From IMG/VR virus record IMGVR_UViG_3300031555_003590, positions 96,001 through 160,000 of that record: a stretch of DNA of 64,000 nucleotides. One strand, 5' to 3'. A program made the position numbers and the translations under genes. The notes under the pieces were generated by a model. The model worked only from the letters and a program-made list of their open reading frames with translations. It was not told where the DNA came from and searched no databases. This stretch comes from a virus. Lineage: Duplodnaviria; Caudoviricetes. Below, one piece after another: positions 4,617-18,098 of this stretch (the stretch's first letter is position 1; every line of letters begins with the position of its first letter).

Positions 4617-6683
4617 GTGATTTTAAATATGGGCTTTAAACAAAATTATGTAGATGCTGCTGTCATGACTATTATGAAAGTACATCCTGAATATAATAAA
4701 GAAGATGTAAAACAAATTATATCTAGAATAGTAAAAGAAAGAATGACTGATCCATCTATTTTAATGGATAATAATGTTACTGGTGAAAGTCATAATACAA
4801 ATCTTACGTATTTATGCAATTGGATTGATAAAAGAAATCCAGTAGTATCAGGTAATGCAACATTCTATTGTCAACCATCTGAACTATTATCACCAACATC
4901 AAATATGTTACGATCTCTAAAAGTTGGTCGTAAACAAGTTAAAAAACAAATGTTCAAATATGCTCCAGATTCAGATGAATATGCTCAATTAGATTTAGAT
5001 CAAATGAATAAGAAAGTTATTATGAATGCTGAATATGGTGGATCAGGTACTCCTACTGCAGCATTTTATACTAAATATTCACCTGCTGCTACAACTCTAA
5101 TGTCACAAAGTATTATTACTACAATGGCTGCTTTCTTTGAATCATTTGTTGGTGATAATCAAAAATTCTTTAGTATTGATGAATGTTTAGATTGGATGAA
5201 TACTATTATCAATAAAAAGAAAGATAAAGTAGCTAAATGGATTAGAATTCCAACTGAATATGAAGTATCTCATAGGATTAAACTTCATTTCTATATGGCT
5301 AATAAAGATAATTTTGATATAATTGATAAATACATCCATAAATGCAGTGATAGTGAAAGAGCATATTTATATTATACAAATAATATGAAATCATTTATTA
5401 CTGATCACCCTAAAGTATCTAAACTAATTAATGATATTTTAACAATTCTTCCATTATTAGAAGCTAGTGAAAAAGAAGTACCTGATCAATATAAAGATAA
5501 ATTTGGATTAGAAGAATATAATAAGTGGGTTGCAAAAGAGATGTTCTTAGATCCATATAATGTTCCAGATTCAATAAAAAATATAATTACCGATTTAGTA
5601 GATTTAGTACACCAGTATGTATATGTAGAATATTTAACTCCAGATAGCATTGTTAAACTTAATAATCATATGAGAAATACAGTATTATTAGTTGATACAG
5701 ATTCAAATGTTATTAATTCAGATTTGTTTGTTTCATTTGTATTAGATAGTGTATTTCCTGGTAGCACATTTAATAGATCTCGTCTATATAATGAAATGAT
5801 TCTTACTAATGTATTGGCTACAATGTTAGATAAATGTGTAAAAAATACATTAGACTATTATGGAAGATGTCATAATATGGATGAAGCATCAAGAGCTGAA
5901 CTTACGATGAAAAATGAATTTATGTTTAGAAGATTCTTCTTGATGTTAACAAAGAAAAGATATGCAGCTTCTATTGTATTAAGAGAAGGAAATATGATGC
6001 TTCCATTCAAATTAGAAATTAAAGGAATGGATTTTATCAAAGCAGGTGTTACTGATGATGTAACTAGTAAGTTTACTAATATGCTTAAAAATCATATTCT
6101 ATTTGCTGAAGAACCTCAACTTCACAATATGATGAAAGAAATTAAACAATTTGAAAAAGAAATTTATAATGATCTAAGAAATGGTGGAACTAAATATCTC
6201 AAGAGTTCTCAATATAAACCTGCAGAAGGATATTCTAAAATTAAAGATGCTAATGGTAAAGTTATTGGTAGTAAAGCATGGTCACTACCAGTATTTAGAG
6301 GTTCTGAAATATGGAATATATTATACCCTGATAAACAAATAAATTCATTAGATAGAGTAAGTATTGTAAAGCTTACAATAACTAATATAAAGGATCTAGA
6401 TAAAATCAAAGATCAATTTCCAGATGACTATAATAATGTAATTACTAAGATATATGGATCTAATAATCCTAATATTATAAATGCTGGAATGAAAGTTATT
6501 TGTATTCCTAATACAGTATATCAGATTCCAGATTGGATAATTCCATTCATTGATTATGATGTAATTATTTCTGATGTAATTTCATCATTTAGATCTGTAC
6601 TAGATTCTTTAAAATTAGAAGGTATGGCATTTAAAACTCCTAATGGAAAAGCTAATATCACATCATGTTTAATTAGTTTATAA
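4617..6683 (+). CDS. polB: Divergent family B DNA polymerase, polymerase subunit (phiKZ-like split PolB)
   Basis: KKVIMNAEYGG (motif B), LLVDTDS (motif C), KKRYA, EIKGMDFIK. No exonuclease domain or DxxSLYPS motif seen, consistent with a split enzyme. Confidence 0.8.
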   Translation: MILNMGFKQNYVDAAVMTIMKVHPEYNKEDVKQIISRIVKERMTDPSILMDNNVTGESHNTNLTYLCNWIDKRNPVVSGNATFYCQPSELLSPTSNMLRSLKVGRKQVKKQMFKYAPDSDEYAQLDLDQMNKKVIMNAEYGGSGTPTAAFYTKYSPAATTLMSQSIITTMAAFFESFVGDNQKFFSIDECLDWMNTIINKKKDKVAKWIRIPTEYEVSHRIKLHFYMANKDNFDIIDKYIHKCSDSERAYLYYTNNMKSFITDHPKVSKLINDILTILPLLEASEKEVPDQYKDKFGLEEYNKWVAKEMFLDPYNVPDSIKNIITDLVDLVHQYVYVEYLTPDSIVKLNNHMRNTVLLVDTDSNVINSDLFVSFVLDSVFPGSTFNRSRLYNEMILTNVLATMLDKCVKNTLDYYGRCHNMDEASRAELTMKNEFMFRRFFLMLTKKRYAASIVLREGNMMLPFKLEIKGMDFIKAGVTDDVTSKFTNMLKNHILFAEEPQLHNMMKEIKQFEKEIYNDLRNGGTKYLKSSQYKPAEGYSKIKDANGKVIGSKAWSLPVFRGSEIWNILYPDKQINSLDRVSIVKLTITNIKDLDKIKDQFPDDYNNVITKIYGSNNPNIINAGMKVICIPNTVYQIPDWIIPFIDYDVIISDVISSFRSVLDSLKLEGMAFKTPNGKANITSCLISL

Positions 6684-8476: not shown

Positions 8477-9238
8477 TTGATAACAAATGGAAAACCGTTT
8501 GACACAAATATATTTTTTTCAGGAGGAGCGGGTCTATTTCTTCAGTATCATGATATTATAAAACCAGCATATTTATATGCGATTATTAAAATGATAATTA
8601 CTGAAGAAACATATGGATTGCCAGTAAATATTATCAAAAAATTTTCAATTTTATCCATTATTGAATGGTATATAAAAAGAAGATATAAAAATCCATTACA
8701 ATGTTTAGATTTTAATCATAAAGGTGAAGATGAATATTTAGATGAATTATTACGAATTATTTTGAATAATGATAAATCAATTTATAAATATAGCCCAGCA
8801 TTAAATATCAATAGAATGTTGAATGTATATAGAAGACAACATATGTCATTTCCAATTTACGTATATAGTGAAAATGAAGAATATCATATAAGAGAAGATT
8901 GTAGTAGACTTTTCCAAGGTATTCAATTTAAATATCTACATGGAGATTTAAAACAAGCTATTCAAAGTTGTGATCAAAATTTCACTTATATATTTTCTGA
9001 TATAGAATTAGTAAAAGAAGCTACTCAAATTTTGATAGGAACTTGCTCACATATTTTATTAGCAGCAGAGTATAGATATAATTATACTGATAATTGTAAA
9101 ACATTAAAATATGATCTAACTGAATTAGCTTCAAAACATCCATTTGTTAGAATTGGATTAACTACTGCTATTGATTCAATATCATTAGCTAAGTCTTTTA
9201 CTAATTTAATTAAAATTCAACAGGAAGGAGCTATTTAA
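8477..9238 (+). CDS. Hypothetical protein (possible degenerate HAD-like fold)
   Basis: TTG start with AAGGAGGTG RBS; coupled to next gene via TAATG. Confidence 0.55.
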   Translation: MITNGKPFDTNIFFSGGAGLFLQYHDIIKPAYLYAIIKMIITEETYGLPVNIIKKFSILSIIEWYIKRRYKNPLQCLDFNHKGEDEYLDELLRIILNNDKSIYKYSPALNINRMLNVYRRQHMSFPIYVYSENEEYHIREDCSRLFQGIQFKYLHGDLKQAIQSCDQNFTYIFSDIELVKEATQILIGTCSHILLAAEYRYNYTDNCKTLKYDLTELASKHPFVRIGLTTAIDSISLAKSFTNLIKIQQEGAI

Positions 9239-10238
9239 TGCTACAATTGAATGCAATTAAAACGGTTGATACACAACCAGAAATAATACCTAGATGGGAA
9301 TATAAAAAACATGCATTTCCAAATGGTGCAGAAAGTTATTGGATAAAATGGCGTTGCCATCCAGATGATATGAGATTCTTTTCAATGCCTAAAACGATGA
9401 TTATTAAATTCGATAAAGAATTATCTCACATTAACAATGAAAATATTTCTGCATTAAATGAATGGAAAGTAACTAAACTTTCATATTCTTCATATTTACC
9501 TAGAATGTGTGAAGAATTAAATTTCTTTGAAACTATGTATGATCAAGAGGGAGAATTAATTGCTGCTTTATTTAAAATCAAATATTTGATTGATGTTGAT
9601 AATATTTCATATACAATGAAAAATTTTGATGCATTTAAAGATTTAGTATATAAAACTATTTTTACTGAATCTATGAAGAATAAAATTACTAGAATGATTG
9701 AAGAAAATTATGTTGATGATATTGAAGCTGAAAATATTAAAAATATGAAAAACCCTGATATGTTAAGTATCATGCAACGTAAAAAGAAATCATTGGAGTT
9801 TTTAAATGTACATGTAAAAGCAATGTTAATGATATCATTTGGAATAAAAATATTATCATTTATTGTAAATCATTTTGCAGTAATGAGATCAATTAATATT
9901 CAAAAGAATATAGAATTATTTTATAGATTCTATGTTGGTATGTTTGATGTATTTGATTTTGAATTTAATATATACAATAAAATTTACAGCTATGTTGAAT
10001 CGAAAACAAGTACTTGTGCAAATTTCAACCGTTCCATATTCAGTCAACAAGAAGTAGAGGGAAAAGATAAGAGTATAATTATAAATCAATTAATGACACG
10101 TAATGTTGTGATAGATAATATGATTAAATTTCAAATGCCTCAAACATGGAATTCTGCTAAGGAGCAACCTAATGAACGCGTTCTCAGCTTCTTATGTAGT
10201 ATTATAAATACACATTTATCAATTTTCATTATGCAGGT
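9238..10238 (+). CDS. Sigma-like promoter-specificity subunit of non-virion RNAP (AR9 gp226/phiKZ gp68-like), exon 1
   Basis: IIKFDKELSH..ISALNEWKVTKLSY..LPRMCEELNFF resembles the AR9 gp226 N-terminus as I recall it. Spliced ORF is 1704 nt = 567 aa. Confidence 0.7.
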
Positions 10239-10592
10239 AAACTAAACTGCCTGTCTTCTCATAATTGCGGGAACATCTTGTTAGACTTATACTACCAAGT
10301 TATACTAGTGATACTATAATGGTCTAGAGTAACTAACTAGAGTATGGTAACAAGGTATAAGGTAGAGAAAATCCGCAGCTAATCAACTAGTGTTAACTAG
10401 TTGCAGGTTCAACGACTATCGAAAGCAGTAATGTGAGTAGAGTAGAGCCTAAGTTAATGAGGTAGGTATATCCTTTAAATCGAAATGAGAAGCACTACTA
10501 ATAGTAGTGAAGATATAGTCTACTCTATACCAAGAGGTATAGTAGTTCATAAAAGAACGGTATTAGTGTTGCGAACTAATATGAATGCCAGG
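10239..10592 (+). ncRNA. Group I intron (ORF-less, 354 nt) in sigma-like subunit
   Basis: P AATTGCGGGAA, Q AATCCGCAGC, R GTTCAACGACTA, S AAGATATAGTCT; P1 GCAGGU/GCCUGU with U.G at 10238; terminal G 10592; splicing restores frame (IMQ-V-FRRNL). Confidence 0.9.
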
Positions 10593-11295
10593 ATTTAGAC
10601 GTAATCTTATAGAGACGAGTATGGTCCCTGATTCTGATGGTAATAGTAAAAATGATAGATATAGAGCATCTAAAATGAAACTAAATGAAGAATATGTAAT
10701 TACATGTTCTATGGATATGAAACAGATTGCTGATCATTTATTTAAAAAATATGAAAAAGAAATTACTCCAGAAGAAATTGAATATTATCGCAGGAATTTG
10801 AAACCAAGTAGACTTCATCAATTAATGGTAGAAATTTATTTCTTCAATTATACTGGATCAGCACAAGAATTTGCATTATTAAGAAATTTAGACTGGCATA
10901 AAATGTTATTGGTAATGCGTAAGGATATTATGCGTAGATTTAATGTAGATAAAGATAGTTTATTAGATTCTGCATTATCATTAATTATCACCAGTAATAT
11001 TGAAGAAACTCCAGTTGGTGAAAAGATGTACGTTAAAGATACTAAGTATCTAAAAGATCATCCAGTATATAATGAATTGGTAGAAAAGTTTTATTCTACT
11101 ATTATAGATATCAATCCTGATATCATTAAGAAGTTTCTAATTACATTTGTTAATAGTAAATACAGATTCGTATTATATGAACATCAGGAATTGTTAGATG
11201 AAGAAATTTCATTAAATAAGAAAGAATTAATTGATGAAATTCTTACATTTCTCTTAATAGCCAATACAAATATTTCATTGGAAGGTAGAGTATAA
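10593..11295 (+). CDS. Sigma-like nvRNAP subunit, exon 2
   Basis: In-frame continuation after splicing; C-terminus KELIDEILTFLLI. Confidence 0.7.
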
Positions 11296-11296
11296 T

Positions 11297-11938
11297 ATGT
11301 ATAATGATGATAAACTAAAAGTTTATTTTGATGCAGAGTTTACTGGACTCCATAAAGATACTACTTTAATTAGCATTGGATTAGTATCTGAGAATGGAAG
11401 ATATTTCTATGCAGAATTTAATGATTATGATAAGTATCAATGTGATGATTGGATAAAAGAAAATGTATTAAATAATTTGATATATGACGACAATTTTCCT
11501 GAAACCAATAATATGAATAATCGTCGTATGCTCGTTTATGGTTCTAAAGAGTATATTGGGCATGCATTAAAAGAATGGCTTAAATTGTTAAGTGAAGATA
11601 ATAATAAACAAATTCAAATGTATTGTGATTGTTATGCATATGATTGGATGTTGTTTAATGATTTAATATGTGAAAATGGTAAAGCATTAAATTTACCTGA
11701 TTATATTTATTATATTCCAATGGATCTGAGTACAGCATTACAATTAAATGGTTATGATCCCGATATCACTCGTGAAGAGTTTATTAGATCACAATTAAAG
11801 TTACTTGAATTCTTATTCCCATTAATAAATGACCATGGACCAGCTAAGCATAATTCTTTATGGGATGCTTATATATGTAAAGAATGTTTTACGAAACTAT
11901 CTTTTCTAAATGATGAAAAAAATCTGGAAAGATTGTAA
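11297..11938 (+). CDS. DEDDh 3'-5' exo(ribo)nuclease (Rv2179c/DUF5051-like)
   Basis: VYFDAEFTGL, ISIGLV..FYAEF, AYDW, HNSLWDA. Confidence 0.8.
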   Translation: MYNDDKLKVYFDAEFTGLHKDTTLISIGLVSENGRYFYAEFNDYDKYQCDDWIKENVLNNLIYDDNFPETNNMNNRRMLVYGSKEYIGHALKEWLKLLSEDNNKQIQMYCDCYAYDWMLFNDLICENGKALNLPDYIYYIPMDLSTALQLNGYDPDITREEFIRSQLKLLEFLFPLINDHGPAKHNSLWDAYICKECFTKLSFLNDEKNLERL

Positions 11939-12079
11939 ATAAACCAACAATGAGGTGTTGGGAATATTCCCAACACCTTATTTATTATATATAAAGGTGG
12001 TAATATTATAATGAGCATTCCATCAATATTAATTCATCATTATGGTATTTTAAACAAAAAGGAGGAAAATGAAACAGTA

Positions 12080-12295
12080 ATGAGTAATAAAATTAGAGGT
12101 AAGAAAATGACTGTTGCACAAATGAAAATTGTTAATAAGTATGATAAGTCAATTGATGTGAATGAATGGTTATTTCTTAAAGAAGAACATGTTGATTCCA
12201 ATGGTAATAAAAATGCATCAAAAAATTCATCTGTAGATAAATATTTAAATATTATTAATAAAAATACTGGTGAGATTAAAAGAATATTAATGTAA
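12080..12295 (+). CDS. Small hypothetical protein
   Basis: AAGGAGG upstream of ATG 12080 within the track ORF 12011-12295. Confidence 0.5.
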   Translation: MSNKIRGKKMTVAQMKIVNKYDKSIDVNEWLFLKEEHVDSNGNKNASKNSSVDKYLNIINKNTGEIKRILM

Positions 12296-12312
12296 TATAA
12301 AGGAGTAGATTT

Positions 12313-12796
12313 ATGCGAATAAAATTTAGTAGATTAAATTTAGAATCAGAATGTATGTATGATTGTATTAATGGAAAGGGATTCATTATTAGTGATGTAC
12401 CATTTTCTGATATAGATAAGTCAGTTAGGAATATGGATGGTCCTCGTAGCCCTAGGTTTGGTACGACTTATGGCGATGTTAATGAGTTCATGGATCGTTA
12501 TCATTGTAAATGTGGACGATATGTAGGAGCAACATTTGAAGGTGAATTATGTCCAGAATGTGGTACTAAAATTGAATATACTGATGTTGATATTATGTAT
12601 ACTGGATGGCTTAACTTTTATCCATATAAAATCATATCACCACTTTTCTTTCATCGATTACAATCAGCATTATCAAAGAAAATATTAGAAAATATTATAT
12701 CAAATGAAAATATAATTACATCATCAGGCATCATTAGAAAACATAATGATGCATTAGAAGTAAAGAAAAGTTTATTACAATATCACAATATAGGGT
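12313..12796 (+). CDS. rpoC: Non-virion RNAP beta' N-terminal subunit, exon 1
   Basis: Zinc-binding RYHCKCG...CPECG. Five exons total 1383 nt = 460 aa. Confidence 0.85.
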
Positions 12797-14205
12797 AAAT
12801 ATTGTTGCTCTTTCTCTCATAATTGCGGGAAACTCTCGTTAAGTCTAAGGTACTGCAGCTACTGGTGACAGATAGTGTAGCAGATAGTATAACAGCTATC
12901 GGATAGTAAAAACCCTTAGAATAGAGAAAATCATACGCAGCTAAGATAATAGTTATATATTATTTATATAAGATATTAGAATCTGGTATATTCTAATATC
13001 AGAAAGGAGGTAATGATATATGGGTAAGAAACATAGATACAAGATATCAGAAAATTATGATTTAGAACAAGCTGTATTGAATATGAATTGGAAATCAGTT
13101 TTAATACATGGAGAAATGACAAGATATGAAGTTAGTGATTGCGGCTTGGTAAAAAGTTTAAAACACAATATTATCCTTGCACCAGGAATGGATACTTATG
13201 GATATCCTCAAGTTGGAATATATTTGAATGATGTTAGATTTAATCGAAAAGTTCATAGACTAGTTGCTGAAGCATTTATTCCCAATCCTGAAAATAAACC
13301 TGAAATAAATCATAAAGATGGTAATAAAATAAATAATGATGTTAAAAATCTTGAATGGTCTACAACTAAAGAAAATATTGACCATGCAATTAGAACAGGT
13401 TTACGTAAACATATTGATGCATTAAGTGGAGCATATCATAAATATGAAATTGATATAATACATGAAATATGTAAATTATTAGAAGAAGGTAAATTACAAC
13501 AAAAGGAAATTGCTGAAATATTAAATGTCCCTAAGGGAATAATTTCTGAAATTAAATGTAAACGTATATGGCTTAGTGTATCTTGTCAATATAATATTGA
13601 TCTTCCTAATACTAGAGGCGAAACTCATCATAATGCAATATATACTGAAGATCAAATTTGCAAAGTGTGTCAAATGTTACAAGATCGAAAATATAGTTAT
13701 AAAGAAATAATGAAAATTACAGGAGTTTCTAAATCTTTAATTGCTAATATAAAGAATAAGCATAGTTGGAAATGTATTTCAGATTTATATGATATTCCTC
13801 CTTCTAATTATATTGGTGAAAATCATTATAAATCAAAATATATGGAAGATCAAATTCATTATGTATGTAAATTATTAGAAGAAGGAAAATATACTCATTC
13901 TAAGATTTCTGAAATTACTGGAGTGAGTAAAAAGGTTATTTCAAATATAAAATATAAACATTCTTGGACTCATATATCTAAATTGTATAATATATGATAT
14001 ACCAGATCATTTATTATAACATAACTATTATCAAGTTCAACGACTATCGAAAACAGTAATGTGAGTAGAGTAGTACATCAGCTAAAGATGTAAACGAAAC
14101 GAGAGACACTACTAATTAGTAGTGAAGATATAGTCTAGTATCCTATAGAAATATAGGGAAGTTCATAAGAGAACTGCACTAGCTTGCGACTAGTGTGAAT
14201 ATACG
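12797..14205 (+). mobile_element. Group I intron 1 of beta'N, carrying an HNH endonuclease
   Basis: P/Q/R/S motifs; P1 AGGGU/GCUCU; terminal G 14205; junction HNIG-L-QQFYENF. Confidence 0.9.
13020..13997 (+). CDS. Intron-encoded HNH homing endonuclease with repeated HTH-like C-terminal domains
   Basis: YEVSDCGLVKS, KVHRLVAEAFIPNPENKPEINHKDGNKINNDVKNLEW; three HTH-like repeats. Confidence 0.9.
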   Translation: MGKKHRYKISENYDLEQAVLNMNWKSVLIHGEMTRYEVSDCGLVKSLKHNIILAPGMDTYGYPQVGIYLNDVRFNRKVHRLVAEAFIPNPENKPEINHKDGNKINNDVKNLEWSTTKENIDHAIRTGLRKHIDALSGAYHKYEIDIIHEICKLLEEGKLQQKEIAEILNVPKGIISEIKCKRIWLSVSCQYNIDLPNTRGETHHNAIYTEDQICKVCQMLQDRKYSYKEIMKITGVSKSLIANIKNKHSWKCISDLYDIPPSNYIGENHYKSKYMEDQIHYVCKLLEEGKYTHSKISEITGVSKKVISNIKYKHSWTHISKLYNI

Positions 14206-14571
14206 TACAACAGTTTTATGAAAATTTTGAAGAAATAATGTTGTATTATAAAAGTAAACGTAAACAAAAAGCTGATTTAATTGATTCATTAATTAGAGAT
14301 AAAGATTTAGTTTGGACATCTAAAATTCCAGTATATTCAACTGTATTACGTCCTCAAGGTGTAACTGCTGAATCATATTATTTTACTACAGCAGATAAGC
14401 ATATTAATCCTTTAACAAATATATGTATTAATTTAAAGAAAGCTTCTCCAATTGAAGTACCATTATATTTATATCAAGCTCAAATGAGAGTAAATGAATT
14501 ATGGGGTATTAATTTTGTATTAATTGACGGAAAACATGGATGGTGTAGGGGAAATGTGCTTGGAGGCGAGT
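14206..14571 (+). CDS. rpoC: nvRNAP beta'N, exon 2
   Basis: IPVYSTVLRP; GKHGWCRGNVLGG (cf. GKQGRFRQNLLGK). Confidence 0.85.
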
Positions 14572-14989
14572 TGATAATATAAAATGGCTCGCTATAAACT
14601 AGGTTAATTGCGGGAACATCTTGTTATGTCAATACTACCAAGTTATACTAGTGATAGTATAATGGTCTAGAGTAATTAACTAGAGTATGGTAACAATGTA
14701 TTGAATAGAGAAAATCCGCAGCTAATCAACTAGTGTTAACTAGTTGCAGGTTCAACGACTATCTCATAGGACTAGTAATACTAGTCAACAGGAGTAGGGC
14801 CCAATTGCATATGGGGTGAGTGAAAATCTCTTAAATCGAAATGCCTAGCTCTGTTCATTTAATAATGAGCTAAAGATATAGTCTCGGCATCCTATAAGAA
14901 TAGGAGAAGTTCATATTCAATTCATATGAATATAAATGAATTGATTGTAGAGAACTGCATAGTAGTTGCGATACTATGTGAAGATTACG
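14572..14989 (+). ncRNA. Group I intron 2 of beta'N (ORF-less, 418 nt)
   Basis: P/Q/R/S motifs; P1 GCGAGU/GCUCGC; terminal G 14989; junction GGE-F-NYSGRSVI. Confidence 0.9.
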
Positions 14990-15342
14990 TTAACTACAGT
15001 GGCAGGAGCGTTATAGTTCTTGATCCAACATTAAAAGTAGATGAGGTAGATATACCATATAAAGCATTTATTGAACAATTCAAAGGTAGAATTGTTAGAC
15101 GCATTATAATGGATAAAGGTTGGAGTATTACTAAAGCATATAATTTCCTAGCTAGTAAATTTATGTATGATGATTATGTATATTCAATTATGTGTGATAT
15201 AGTAAAAGATGAAAAACCTTCACTTATAATCAATCGTAATCCAACTATAACATTTGGATCCATACTATTAATGAAAATACGTAAAGTAAAGCCTGATGCA
15301 GATGATATGTCGATGTCAATACCATCTGCAATACTTCCGGGT
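14990..15342 (+). CDS. rpoC: nvRNAP beta'N, exon 3
   Basis: NYSGRSVIVLDPTL and IINRNPTI (cf. LLNRAPTL). Confidence 0.9.
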
Positions 15343-16521
15343 TAACAACAGTGGCCCATCCTCTCATAATTGCGGGAACATATTGTGCTTAACAATAATC
15401 TGTATATTTATAATTATATATTATTTATATATGGATGCCTAAAGCTTCTAATACTAACTTATCATGGTAACATAGATAAGGGCTGAACTAATTATTCAGG
15501 TATAGTAAAAAGTTAGAAGATATATGGTTGATCCGCAGGCAAGGTTCGTTTAATGAAAATTAGTATATAAAATGATAAAGGAGGTGAAAATAAAATGGTT
15601 GAAGGAATGTATATTGGAGATACATTTTATTTCATCGAATGGAGAAAGATCTATATTGATGGAATTCCTACACACTATGAAGTTAGTGAAAATGGTATGG
15701 TTAGAAATACTGATGATGGATATATTCTATCTCATGATATTGATAAAGATGGATATCATAAAGTGACTATTGGTGTTAGTGGAAAATCTAAACATTTCGG
15801 TGTACATAGGTTAGTTGCATTAATGTTTATTCCTAATCCTGATCATAAACCTATTCCACATCATAAAGATAATAACCCAGACAATAATGATGTATCTAAT
15901 TTAGAATGGGCTACTTATGCAGAAAATCGTAGATATGCAGTAGAAGCTAGTAATGTTATAGGTAAACGTGGAGAAAATAGTCATTTAAATAAATATAAAG
16001 AAAAAGATATTCGTCTGATTTGCGAATTATTTGAAAAAGGTTTATCAAATATTGAAATATCTAAGATAGTTAATATGCCTAGAAAGTATATTACTGATAT
16101 ACGAAAGGGTAGAAGGTGGAAGTATATATCGAAAGAATATAAATTTGATCCAAAATCCTCTCATAGAGAATCAGGATATTATGAAGAGTTAGAAAATGCT
16201 ATTCTTTATCAACTTTCTATGAATAAATCAGTATTAGAAATAACCAAAGAATTGAATTTACCTAATACTAAAATATATAAATCTCTAATTAAACGAATTA
16301 AACGAACCAGCCTCAACGACTATCTCCTAGTGGAGAGTAGCGCCTAAGCTAATGAGGTAGGTATATCCTTTAAAGCGAAACGAGAGGCACTAGTAATACT
16401 ACTAGTGAAGATATAGTCTAGTATCCTACTGAAAAGTAGGGAAGTTCAATTTCAATTCATATAAATATAATGAATTGATTATAGAGAACTGCACTAGCTT
16501 GCGACTAGTGTGAATATAACG
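15343..16521 (+). mobile_element. Group I intron 3 of beta'N, carrying an HNH endonuclease
   Basis: P AATTGCGGGAA, Q GATCCGCAGG, R CTCAACGACTA, S AAGATATAGTCT; P1 GGGU/GCCC; terminal G 16521. Confidence 0.9.
15595..16347 (+). CDS. Intron-encoded HNH homing endonuclease
   Basis: YEVSENGMVRN, GVHRLVALMFIPNPDHKPIPHHKDNNPDNNDVSNLEW; AAGGAGGTG RBS; 3' end overlaps the intron R element. Confidence 0.9.
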   Translation: MVEGMYIGDTFYFIEWRKIYIDGIPTHYEVSENGMVRNTDDGYILSHDIDKDGYHKVTIGVSGKSKHFGVHRLVALMFIPNPDHKPIPHHKDNNPDNNDVSNLEWATYAENRRYAVEASNVIGKRGENSHLNKYKEKDIRLICELFEKGLSNIEISKIVNMPRKYITDIRKGRRWKYISKEYKFDPKSSHRESGYYEELENAILYQLSMNKSVLEITKELNLPNTKIYKSLIKRIKRTSLNDYLLVESSA

Positions 16522-16536
16522 CTAAATGCAGACTTT
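16522..16536 (+). CDS. rpoC: nvRNAP beta'N, exon 4 (15-nt micro-exon, LNADF)
   Basis: CTA AAT GCA GAC TTT between terminal G of intron 3 and P1 of intron 4. Confidence 0.85.
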
Positions 16537-17306
16537 TGAGGTTAAATCCCAACCATTGGAGTCTTTAAATTTCCTTAATTGCGGGAAACCTGTAATATCT
16601 GTTAATACCAAATCATAGTAGTAATATTATGATGGCAAGAGGTAATATCTCAAGGTATGGTAACAAGTTAACAGAGTTGGGTAACCGACGCAGCGAAATA
16701 TCCTTTAAATCTCAATTATATATTTTAAAATAGAAAGGAGTTGAAATATTATGGCATATGTCAAAAGAGAAAGAAGTCAAAAGGCTATTGAAAGAAGTGC
16801 AAAAAAGGTAGCTAGAAAAAAGCGTTTACAACGCAAACAAGAAGCATTTATAGCATTAGATGCTTCTGGTAATAGACCTACTTTAGCATCAAAACCAAAA
16901 CAGAGAATTACAAAAGAAATGTATCTTAGAGAGCTTGAGAAGATACCACATGCAACTGAGTATACTTTATTAAGTGATTTTAAATTATATACACCAAAAT
17001 GTCTTGTTCAGTATAAGCATAATGTTTGTGGTACTAAATTTCAAGCAACTCCTAAAGATTTCGAGTTGAAAAAATCATTATGTCCTACATGTTATGGCAA
17101 TAGAGATTTAAAGGATACGAGTTCAACGACCAACGAACAACCCTAATACATTAATATCGAATTAGGATTAGTAGTGTAGAGCTATATATAATAAATATAT
17201 AGTGGAAGATGGGATTCCTTAAATCGAAACAGGAAGCTATAGAATATTATTCTGTAGAAGATATGGTCTACTATTTAGATATTAAATATTTAATATCTAA
17301 AAGCAG
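16537..17306 (+). mobile_element. Group I intron 4 of beta'N with a zinc-ribbon ORF
   Basis: P AATTGCGGGAA, Q ACCGACGCAGC, R GTTCAACGACCA and S AAGATATGGTCT (compensatory change in P7); P1 AGACUUU/GGAGUCU; terminal G 17306. Confidence 0.85.
16751..17146 (+). CDS. Intron-encoded basic zinc-ribbon protein with no recognisable nuclease domain
   Basis: GAAAGGAG RBS; YKHNVCG...CPTCY. Confidence 0.65.
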   Translation: MAYVKRERSQKAIERSAKKVARKKRLQRKQEAFIALDASGNRPTLASKPKQRITKEMYLRELEKIPHATEYTLLSDFKLYTPKCLVQYKHNVCGTKFQATPKDFELKKSLCPTCYGNRDLKDTSSTTNEQP

Positions 17307-17471
17307 GATGGAGATGTATTAAATACATTATCGATGCCACTTGATGAAATATCTGAGTGGTTTGCTGGCTTTAGTCCTGTCAATATGATGATCAACCGCG
17401 TTGATGAGACGATTAGGTACGATTGCTCGGCACTAGAGAATATCACCTTGGCCATTCTAAGCGACAAATAA
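17307..17471 (+). CDS. rpoC: nvRNAP beta'N, exon 5 (starts DGDVLN)
   Basis: GAT GGA GAT completes NADFDGD; FSPVNMMINR; TAA at 17469-17471 followed by a terminator. Confidence 0.85.
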   Translation, partial: DGDVLNTLSMPLDEISEWFAGFSPVNMMINRVDETIRYDCSALENITLAILSDK

Positions 17472-17475
17472 TCAA

Positions 17476-17508
17476 AAGAGGAGGGTTGATACCCTCCTCT
17501 TATTTTTT
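17476..17508 (+). terminator. Intrinsic terminator after beta'N exon 5
   Basis: AAGAGGAGGGT...ACCCTCCTCTT plus T run. Confidence 0.8.
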
Positions 17509-17587
17509 ATTTATATATTATTTTTGTATAATACATATACAAGTTATTGATCCTAAAAGAATAATAATTAATAGGAGTGATTATTTT

Positions 17588-17684
17588 ATGCCGTACAAAA
17601 AAAGTTTATTACACAATTCATTGTCCAAAATGTGATCGAGATTATCAAGTATTACCCCAAGCATATTTTAGAATTAAAAAATAA
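17588..17684 (+). pseudogene. Frameshifted, truncated zinc-ribbon gene remnant
   Basis: Removing one A from the A7 run (17597-17603) gives MPYKKVYYTIHCPKCDRDYQVLPQAYFRIKK*; RBS and promoter motif upstream. Confidence 0.4.
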
Positions 17685-17756
17685 TTATATATTATAATAA
17701 TAGAATAACTAATAATACAATTAGTTATAATATTAAAAAGTGGAGGTATATTAATT

Positions 17757-18098
17757 ATGTCTGAAAAGAAAGCTATTTCTATGGATTATATGGTATCCAA
17801 AGATACTACAGAGGCGCCTAATGATTGTGAATTGAAAGAATGTATTATGTGTAAAAATAAATTTGCAATTCCTATTAATGAATTAAAAGATACAGATAAC
17901 ATATGTGTGAATTGCGAACCTGTTACTTATATTATGTATACTGATCATCTTATTGATGAGATTAATAAATCTGATAATCTAAATGAAGATGATAAAGAAT
18001 ATGTAGCATCAGCACTTCGTAATGATACTAATGAAATATTAAAATCTTTATATGATGAAGATGCTGTTAGTATTTTAGATCGGGTATTAGGTAAATAA
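17757..18098 (+). CDS. Small zinc-finger hypothetical protein
   Basis: CIMC...CVNC; GGAGGT RBS. Confidence 0.6.
   Translation: MSEKKAISMDYMVSKDTTEAPNDCELKECIMCKNKFAIPINELKDTDNICVNCEPVTYIMYTDHLIDEINKSDNLNEDDKEYVASALRNDTNEILKSLYDEDAVSILDRVLGK

Follow-up and report, generated by a model that had tools for sequence, protein, structure and literature searches.

The locus at positions 12313 to 17471 of the stretch analysed here is very probably a gene, present in one copy, that encodes the N-terminal half of beta' in a jumbo-phage RNA polymerase (RNAP), the counterpart of AR9 gp270 and phiKZ gp55, interrupted by four group I introns, probably of the IA type. The stretch, referred to as the window, comprises bases 96001 to 160000 (64 kb) of the virus record IMGVR_UViG_3300031555_003590, and all coordinates refer to the window unless marked as genome coordinates. 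The record has a length of 292,119 bp and a G+C content of 27.6%, and is rated complete. Its source is a giant (jumbo) phage of animal gut samples, and exact pieces of the locus were present in several animal faecal metagenomes. The locus spans 5159 nt, of which the four introns together account for 3776 nt (73%). The catalytic motif NADFDGD exists only once exon 3, a micro-exon of 15 nt and exon 5 are joined.

Exon map and joined reading frame

Five coding segments are located between a ribosome-binding site (RBS) with its ATG and a terminator hairpin, all on the plus strand. As read from the sequence, the RBS AAGGAG (12300 to 12305) lies 7 nt upstream of the ATG at 12313, and a hairpin resembling an intrinsic terminator (GAGGAGGGT/ACCCTCCTC, followed by a T-run; 17478 to 17510) begins 7 nt past the stop codon. 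Sub-threshold Rfam matches to sraA, STnc40 and a snoRNA were rejected; they were due to this hairpin (sraA and STnc40) or to AT-rich sequence.

Exon 1 (12313 to 12796), taken from the list of open reading frames (ORFs), comprises codons 1 to 161 and base 1 of codon 162, and contains the Zn-ribbon-like CxC...CxxC region of beta'. Exon 2 (14206 to 14571) comprises codons 162 to 283 and base 1 of codon 284, and exon 3 (14990 to 15342) the rest of codon 284 and codons 285 to 401 (NYSGRSVIVLDP ... NRNPTITFGS ... SAILPG). The micro-exon (16522 to 16536), with the sequence CTAAATGCAGACTTT, provides codons 402 to 406 (LNADF), and exon 5 (17307 to 17471) codons 407 to 460 (DGDVLN...AILSDK) and the TAA stop codon. 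Joining the five exons gave 1383 nt without a stop, coding for 460 amino acids that read ...SAILPG^LNADF^DGDVLN... (carets mark splice junctions); all coordinates in a preliminary description of this DNA, made from the letters alone, proved to be correct. The predicted junction sequence from exon 3 through the micro-exon to exon 5 is GGT^CTAAATGCAGACTTT^GATGGAGAT, and the predicted protein stretches across the micro-exon junctions are ILPGLNADFDGDVLN and SAILPGLNADFDGDVLN.

The five-exon gene proposed in that description was collinear with intron-less alleles of equal length. Uninterrupted alleles were obtained, like the other relatives, from IMG/VR and metagenomes. Two of them, L005 (equal to L014) and L023, encode exactly 460 amino acids each, with 79% identity and no gap at any junction. 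Identity to L005 was 86% for exon 1 (residues 1 to 161), 80% for exon 2 (residues 160 to 283) and 65% for exon 5 (residues 407 to 460). When the L005 protein was compared with the window by tblastn, the sole part that was not found was residues 402 to 406, i.e. the micro-exon. The segment at 16522 to 16536 is thus required both for the motif and for the length of 460 amino acids, as had been proposed. The joined product was also collinear with the uninterrupted beta' proteins of LPJP1 and BpSp through all four junctions. Junction 1 reads NIG^L^QQFYENF in the window and IGLDEF or IGLIEF in LPJP1 and BpSp, junction 2 reads LGGE^F^NYSGRS versus LGTRINYSARN, and junctions 3 and 4 read LPG^LNADF^DGDVLN versus LAGLGGDYDGDVLN. 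The ratio of nonsynonymous to synonymous substitution rates (dN/dS) between the joined exons and the intron-less alleles was 0.08 to 0.12, and that between the two intron-less alleles was 0.08, so that the exons are evidently under selection. The gene is present in a single copy in the 292-kb genome and likewise in complete related genomes.

The arrangement is not a misassembly, because contigs of independent faecal metagenome runs (four DNA runs, short contigs only) were identical to the window across every exon/intron border, and one of them, 473 nt in length, spanned 16483 to 16928 without a difference and thereby bridged the micro-exon. An intron-less DNA form was not seen among the short contigs of these four runs. 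Apparent joints in contigs (e.g. 14167 to 16483) were repeat artefacts, in which similar parts of different introns had been linked.

Relationship to jumbo-phage RNA polymerases

Exon 3 matched the Pfam family RNA_pol_Rpb1_2 (PF00623; 1.1e-7). In tblastn it matched the genes for the N-terminal part of beta' of AR9/PBS1-like, Listeria, Staphylococcus and Yersinia jumbo phages with 28 to 37% identity, among them those of AR9, PBS1, LPJP1 and phiR1-37. Comparison of the locus with GenBank phages by megablast gave no match. The comparison with AR9 gp270 and phiKZ gp55 suggested in the preliminary description was made through the intron-less L005 protein, which is 79% identical to the joined product, and both were matched. 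The E value was 1e-41 for the N-terminal beta' protein of the AR9 non-virion RNAP (nvRNAP; PDB 7S00/7S01 chain d), with 1.3e-41 for 7S01_d across residues 91 to 447, and 1.5e-13 for phiKZ gp55 (7OGP chain A). As the best match was the AR9 nvRNAP subunit, the gene product is probably a part of the non-virion enzyme and not of the virion one.

The phage has a second beta' gene, which resembles that of a virion RNAP (vRNAP-like, ...GADYDGDQ), at genome 71.5 to 74.3 kb. This gene has its own group I intron of 1315 nt (genome 71561 to 72875), 23 kb before the window. The insertion site is homologous, being located after base 1 of an aromatic codon, and the U.G pair and terminal G are canonical. An 8-bp P9 closes a loop with a putative antisense ORF, for which an antisense RBS and start codon were seen.

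Group I ribozyme cores

The conserved core from P3 to P9, including the P3/P7 pseudoknot and the G-binding G:C pair of P7, was present in all four introns. In a helix-by-helix check P1, P3, P4, P7, P8 and P9 paired in every intron, with compensatory changes, and the claim of four group I introns was borne out. The J3/4-P4 region contains an 11-mer, AATTGCGGGAA, of which exactly five copies occur on the window strand in 64 kb, one near the 5' end of each of five introns, i.e. the four of the beta' gene and one of an upstream gene. The sequences of P3, P8 and P9 vary among the introns, while complementarity is kept. The P3 pairs of the five introns are CUUCUCA/UGAGAAG, UCUCUC/GAGAGA, CUAGGU/GCCUAG, CCUCUC/GAGAGG and UUUCCU/AGGAAG, the last being that of intron 4. 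The 5' strand of P7 is CAACGACUA (CAACGACCA in intron 4) and its 3' strand GAUAUAGUC (GAUAUGGUC in intron 4). The pairing of P7 is accordingly GACCA/UGGUC in intron 4 and GACUA/UAGUC in the others, a compensatory change from U:A to C:G, and the variant strands of intron 4 recur in introns of the relatives L006 and L012. Minimum free energy folding of the 3' half of intron 4 returned P7, P8 and a long P9 (z -3.2). Judged by eye, the stretch from P7 to P3' (P7.1/P7.2) points to subgroup IA.

The introns were also compared with the Rfam group I model RF00028, which has a gathering score of 50 bits. A scan of the whole window at the gathering threshold gave no matches owing to speed filters, and the region 12000 to 18000 gave no RF00028 match at E<=10, as the fast filters hide the introns. 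Matches emerged only in sub-windows of 0.4 to 1.2 kb. Intron 2 reached 59.2 bits (E 1.3e-14), which is above the gathering score. Introns 1 and 3 were matched with their 3' halves only, at 28 bits (E 4e-6; genome 109988 to 110158) and 34.2 bits (E 1e-6), respectively. The model is split by ORF insertions of 0.4 to 1 kb.

Splice sites and the micro-exon

The last base of the 5' exons (12796, 14571, 15342 and 16536) is T and the last base of the introns (14205, 14989, 16521 and 17306) is G in all four cases. In each case pairing of the splice-site U with a G is possible in P1 just upstream of P3, in agreement with the U.G pairs of the preliminary description; the P1 pairs of introns 1 to 4 are AGGGU/GCUCU, GCGAGU/GCUCGC, GGGU/GCCC and AGACUUU/GGAGUCU. 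Stop codons in the exon frame occur 0 to 3 codons into the introns. Intron 1 has a TAA across the splice site, intron 2 a TAA three codons in, intron 3 a TAA as the first codon past the splice site, and intron 4 a TGA as the first codon.

The internal guide of intron 4, CCAUUGGAGUCU (16553 to 16564, plus strand), pairs with the ligated exons AGACUUU^GAUGG in 12 contiguous pairs, consisting of a P1 of 7 bp with the micro-exon and a P10 of 5 bp with exon 5. In a shuffle test of P1 and P10 only intron 4 gave a significant result, with 16 of 2000 shuffles of the 5' region of the intron as good as the actual sequence. This uninterrupted pairing of 12 bp thus defines where intron 4 begins and ends without recourse to the protein alignment. 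The final 7 nt of the micro-exon (16530 to 16536, AGACUUU) form the 5' strand of the intron-4 P1. By geometry, the micro-exon would act as the 3' exon of intron 3 and also supplies a P1 strand to intron 4, with 7 of its 15 nt in P1, as the preliminary description had it. That description also considered that a splicing order may be imposed; no structural reason for an obligatory order is apparent from the sequence, because introns 3 and 4 would use non-overlapping parts of the micro-exon.

Introns and their open reading frames

Intron 1 (12797 to 14205, plus strand; 1409 nt) additionally shows pairing of P9.1 and P9.2. An ORF between P4' and P7 (13020 to 13997, plus strand) is preceded by the RBS GGAGG and encodes an HNH homing endonuclease of the I-HmuI type with 325 amino acids, consisting of NUMOD4, HNH_3 and helix-turn-helix (HTH) repeats (Pfam HNH_3 2.5e-9, NUMOD4 1.7e-5, HTH_7 1.4e-11; phrog_59 7e-61). 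In the relative L012 an interruption occurs at approximately the position of intron 1 (residue 161/162). Intron 2 (14572 to 14989, plus strand; 418 nt) has no ORF, and all of its helices pair. Its mean column identity to the intron of the upstream gene was 81%.

Intron 3 (15343 to 16521, plus strand; 1179 nt) also has its ORF (15595 to 16347, plus strand) between P4' and P7, and the final codons of this ORF overlap the 5' strand of P7. It is preceded by the RBS GGAGG and encodes an HNH homing endonuclease of 250 amino acids with NUMOD4 and HNH_3 (Pfam HNH_3 7e-9, NUMOD4 8.6e-8; phrog_59 4e-44). An HNH domain of the I-HmuI type was thus recognised in the products of introns 1 and 3, whose endonuclease genes are intact, and not in that of intron 4.

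Intron 4 (16537 to 17306, plus strand; 770 nt) is divergent, although it contains the J3/4-P4 11-mer, P3, P7, P8 and P9. Its P9 is single and long, without P9.1 or P9.2, and its ORF (16751 to 17146, plus strand; 131 amino acids, with an RBS) is located in a loop closed by a 12-bp P6. The ORF matched phrog_559 (1e-7) at profile positions 89 to 183 of 607 only; no Pfam family matched and no catalytic domain was recognised in it. It showed a weak likeness to the N-terminal region with Cys pairs of intron-encoded and free-standing endonucleases of Twort-like and Bacillus phages (tblastn E 7e-5 to 8e-4), and may be the remnant of a truncated homing endonuclease. The core of intron 4 was 77% identical to that of an intron at a neighbouring site in L008 (L008:7353-7712), while its identity to introns 2 and 3 of the window gene was 64 to 69%. 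Intron 4 looks like a ribozyme lineage with a changed insertion site. Relative to the L008 intron it is inserted 2 nt further downstream and has another guide, a sense-strand ORF in P6 and another 3' end.

Insertion sites in related phages

Insertion sites were surveyed in about 20 related contigs. The gene family has at least 11 sites with presence/absence polymorphism. Outside the catalytic loop the sites are located at residues 161/162, 218/219, about 225, 283/284, 288/289 and 368/369. Five sites fall within the 24 nt coding for G-LNADF-DG-D, namely G^L (site f), L^N, within the F codon (site g'), after F (site g) and G^D (site h). Site g is used by this phage only, while site h is shared with AR9 gp270 and is also used by L011. 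Site f (GGT^CTN AAT), which contains intron 3 in this phage, is occupied at the identical nucleotide in seven lineages, the occupied relatives being L006/7, L012, L016, L024, L025 and L028. The guide at this site covaries with the Pro codon, CCGGGU occurring with GCCC and CCAGGU with GCCU(GG). The micro-exon is not unique either; 13-nt equivalents in L006/L007 and L012 (CTAAATGCAGACT and CTCAATGCTGACT) arise from occupation of site f together with an intron in the F codon.

Some of the relatives showed further peculiarities. The metagenomic contig L032 (L032:3473-7734) has at least five interruptions in its beta' gene. One of them is located between L and N of LNADF (GGACTT^...ATG^AACGCAGAT) and represents a further site in the hot spot at the catalytic loop. 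Introns that split the F codon of NADFDGD behind its first base were found in L006 (L006:8480-10189), L008 (L008:7353-8671) and L012 (L012:5370-7249). Each has an antisense GIY-YIG gene near its 3' end and a guide that pairs over 12 to 14 bp with the ligated exons, and the G-binding pair of P7 is unchanged. The last intron base that restores NADFDGD is A in these introns (...A^TT GAC, ...A^TC GAC), not G. Alternative 3' sites with a terminal G were rejected; they would insert 2 to 4 residues into NADFDGD (L008 and L012) or lead to an in-frame stop (L006). The terminal G, universal elsewhere, thus seems to be missing from the introns with an antisense GIY-YIG gene. An ORF-less intron of L030 at the same F-codon site ends canonically (..AATATG^TTGATGG). 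For the GIY-YIG-bearing intron of L008, Rfam gave no RF00028 match.

Proposed splicing pathway and alternative readings

From these features the following pathway is proposed. A primary transcript would cover the stretch between the RBS with its ATG (12313) and the terminator (about 17500). The in-frame stop codon that opens each intron would keep ribosomes off the ribozyme core, and each intron would remove itself by two G-dependent transesterifications, which would yield the reading frame of 1383 nt. Exon 3 (..ILPG), the micro-exon (LNADF) and exon 5 (DGD..) would together restore the Mg-binding loop NADFDGD, with the 12-nt guide of intron 4 aligning the micro-exon and exon 5 for ligation. 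The simplest expectation would be co-transcriptional removal, intron 3 before intron 4. The location of the introns may be explained by homing endonucleases directed at the best-conserved part of a gene that is essential, and intron 4 may spread through co-conversion with intron 3, which is 15 bp distant.

Several observations weigh against this interpretation. Introns 1 and 3 scored below the gathering score of RF00028, because their ORFs split the model. Intron 4 was matched with its 5' half only, at 11.5 bits (E 4.4), so that its case rests on the direct structure; the group I assignment of the preliminary description is backed by RF00028 for intron 2 and, through the 3' halves, for introns 1 and 3, while for intron 4 the Rfam score is not meaningful. 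The P1 helices of introns 1 to 3 are short (4 to 6 bp) and individually no better than those of shuffled sequence; in the shuffle test of P1 and P10, 352 to 1819 of 2000 shuffles were as good for introns 0 to 3. Intron 3 is practically without a P10 to the micro-exon, and its first U.G pair is followed by a second possible one (GGGU^U), so that its 5' splice site is set by the protein alignment and not by RNA structure alone. No RNA run was found among the public sequencing runs carrying the locus, and splicing is therefore inferred.

An extension of the proposed pathway is that intron 3, the micro-exon and intron 4 form a composite element that spreads only as a pair, in which the short spacer forces the ribozymes to fold sequentially and in which mis-ordered splicing or cross-splicing gives a dominant-negative beta' that lacks LNADF and stays in frame. 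This is regarded as rather doubtful. The pair could spread only jointly because the two sites are 15 bp apart and each intron would destroy the target of the other endonuclease. If the composite element existed, intron 4 with its decayed ORF would ride on the HNH endonuclease of intron 3, and the amount of active late polymerase would depend on splicing fidelity.

It is improbable that the introns are real and that one or more junctions are off by a few nucleotides, that alternative 3' sites are used, or that the micro-exon is skipped in many transcripts. The two adjacent U.G pairs at intron 3 and the indistinct P1 helices of introns 1 to 3 would leave room for other junctions. Loss of 16522 to 16536 would keep the frame and, by arithmetic, delete LNADF, whereas a catalytically dead product, as envisaged in the preliminary description, is speculative. 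Exon skipping has a precedent in a three-intron gene of phage Twort, as cited in PMC3073962. However, shifted junctions break the frame or alter the invariant FNYSGRS and NADFDGD, whereas the proposed ones reproduce the intron-less alleles residue for residue. The site-f junctions are identical in seven lineages, and P1 and P10 fix both ends of intron 4. Cross-splicing is less likely than among the three similar introns of phage Twort, since introns 3 and 4 have a core identity of only 64% and differ in their guides and 3' ends.

Decay of the gene is still less probable. In that case selfish insertions would have inactivated it, its fragments would stay unjoined, and the subunit would be supplied otherwise or be dispensable. 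The lack of an RNA run with the locus, the poor RF00028 score of intron 4, the weak P1 and P10 of intron 3 and the truncated appearance of the intron-4 ORF would all fit such a gene. The exons, however, contain neither frameshift nor stop, and their dN/dS of 0.08 to 0.12 is the same as that between intact alleles of this single-copy gene. All core helices are intact and show compensatory changes, the intron-4 guide fits both flanking exons over its 12 bp, and every intron retains its initial in-frame stop and final G.

There is next to no likelihood that the interruptions are handled during or after translation (inteins or ribosomal bypassing) or that the pieces are separate polypeptides of a split subunit; beta and beta' of jumbo phages such as AR9 and phiKZ are already split polypeptides and three of the four insertions encode proteins, but every insertion opens with an in-frame stop, the ORFs inside use other frames, have their own RBS and lack intein domains, neither an RBS nor a start codon is present at the homologous position in exons 2, 3 and 5, a free peptide of 5 residues cannot supply a catalytic loop, and the RNA cores match group I models.

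Neighbouring genes and other introns of the genome

A fifth group I intron of the window (10239 to 10583; 345 nt, ORF-less) reached 57.5 bits with RF00028. It is located 1.7 kb upstream of the locus in a neighbouring gene (9238 to 11295), and its region from P4 to P7 is nearly identical to that of intron 2. The joined product of the upstream gene, 570 amino acids, was collinear with uninterrupted homologues in L014, L015, L016 and L020; in other relatives the gene has introns at other places. It gave no Pfam, PHROG or GenBank-phage match. The preliminary description, whose exon/intron map stands, had not included this intron, the weak Rfam signal of intron 4 or the recurrence of the insertions in relatives.

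A comparison of the whole 292-kb genome with RF00028 gave 9 matches, 3 of which were above the cut-off. This genome-wide scan misses introns 3 and 4 of the locus and the intron of the vRNAP-like gene. The number of group I introns in the genome is probably about twelve; examples lie near 25.3, 27.4, 189.6, 190.2 and 236.4 kb. The flanks of the locus include a divergent family B DNA polymerase (4617 to 6683; Pfam divDNApol 7.8e-42) and a protein with an Rv2179c-like 3'-5' exoribonuclease domain (11297 to 11938).

Significance and comparison with known systems

For this locus gene callers list unrelated fragments (three or four) along with endonucleases (two or three), and never the catalytic motif. 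RNAP subunits of intron-rich jumbo phages will hence be under-called or labelled as broken. With two full-size ORF-bearing ribozymes only 15 nt apart, the locus is a natural test case in a bacterial virus for ribozyme folding, splicing order and exon skipping. It is also a compact system for competition and cooperation of homing endonucleases with overlapping targets, and the hot spot is relevant to intron-mediated interference between co-infecting jumbo phages (PMC11620839).

Introns in RNAP genes of jumbo phages are a known phenomenon, of which the present locus is a dense and unusual case. Novel aspects are the presence of four introns in a phage gene of 1.4 kb, an exon of 15 nt that lies within a catalytic motif and has an ORF-bearing ribozyme on either side, and the view, across a population, of a hot spot for homing. 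A phage exon as short as 15 nt, or one inside the catalytic motif of an enzyme, was not found in a limited literature search that did not extend to the original report on Twort.

The closest known case is the orthologous gp270 of AR9, whose coding sequence is annotated in joined form; the intron follows DYDG and contains an HNH gene (g271). As in the window, a group I intron lies inside the codons for the metal-binding DxDGD; it shares the P7 motif GTTCAACGACTATCG and the endonuclease type (HNH_3 and NUMOD4). AR9 has a single intron at site h, whereas the gene in the window has four, none of them at site h. Introns 3 and 4 are inserted upstream of the AR9 site, at distances of 21 and 6 nt, and hence 15 nt apart, which results in the micro-exon. 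The intron of PhiPA3 gp210 also interrupts an RNAP subunit gene (Birkholz et al., Science 2024, PMC11620839), and interference with co-infecting intron-less relatives was given there as a rationale for keeping such introns. The PhiPA3 gene, from a Pseudomonas chimallivirus, differs in encoding a beta-type (RpoB-like) subunit and in having one intron and no micro-exon.

Several group I introns in one phage gene are likewise present in orf142 of Staphylococcus phage Twort, for which three introns and exon skipping were described (Landthaler and Shub 1999, as cited in PMC3073962); the three Twort introns are similar to each other. The Jug phages, huge gut phages with about 18 introns per genome (PMC12880540), resemble the present phage in being intron-dense large genomes from gut samples. 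Mini-exons of 3 nt and even 1 nt between group I introns are found in fungal and other mitochondrial genes (PMC8971849). As with the micro-exon in the window, they are flanked by two group I introns, are invisible to similarity-based annotation and serve both ribozymes. The mitochondrial mini-exons belong to organellar genes, which are often maturase-dependent, whereas the micro-exon of the window is found in a bacterial virus with coupled transcription and translation, and both introns that flank it bear an ORF.

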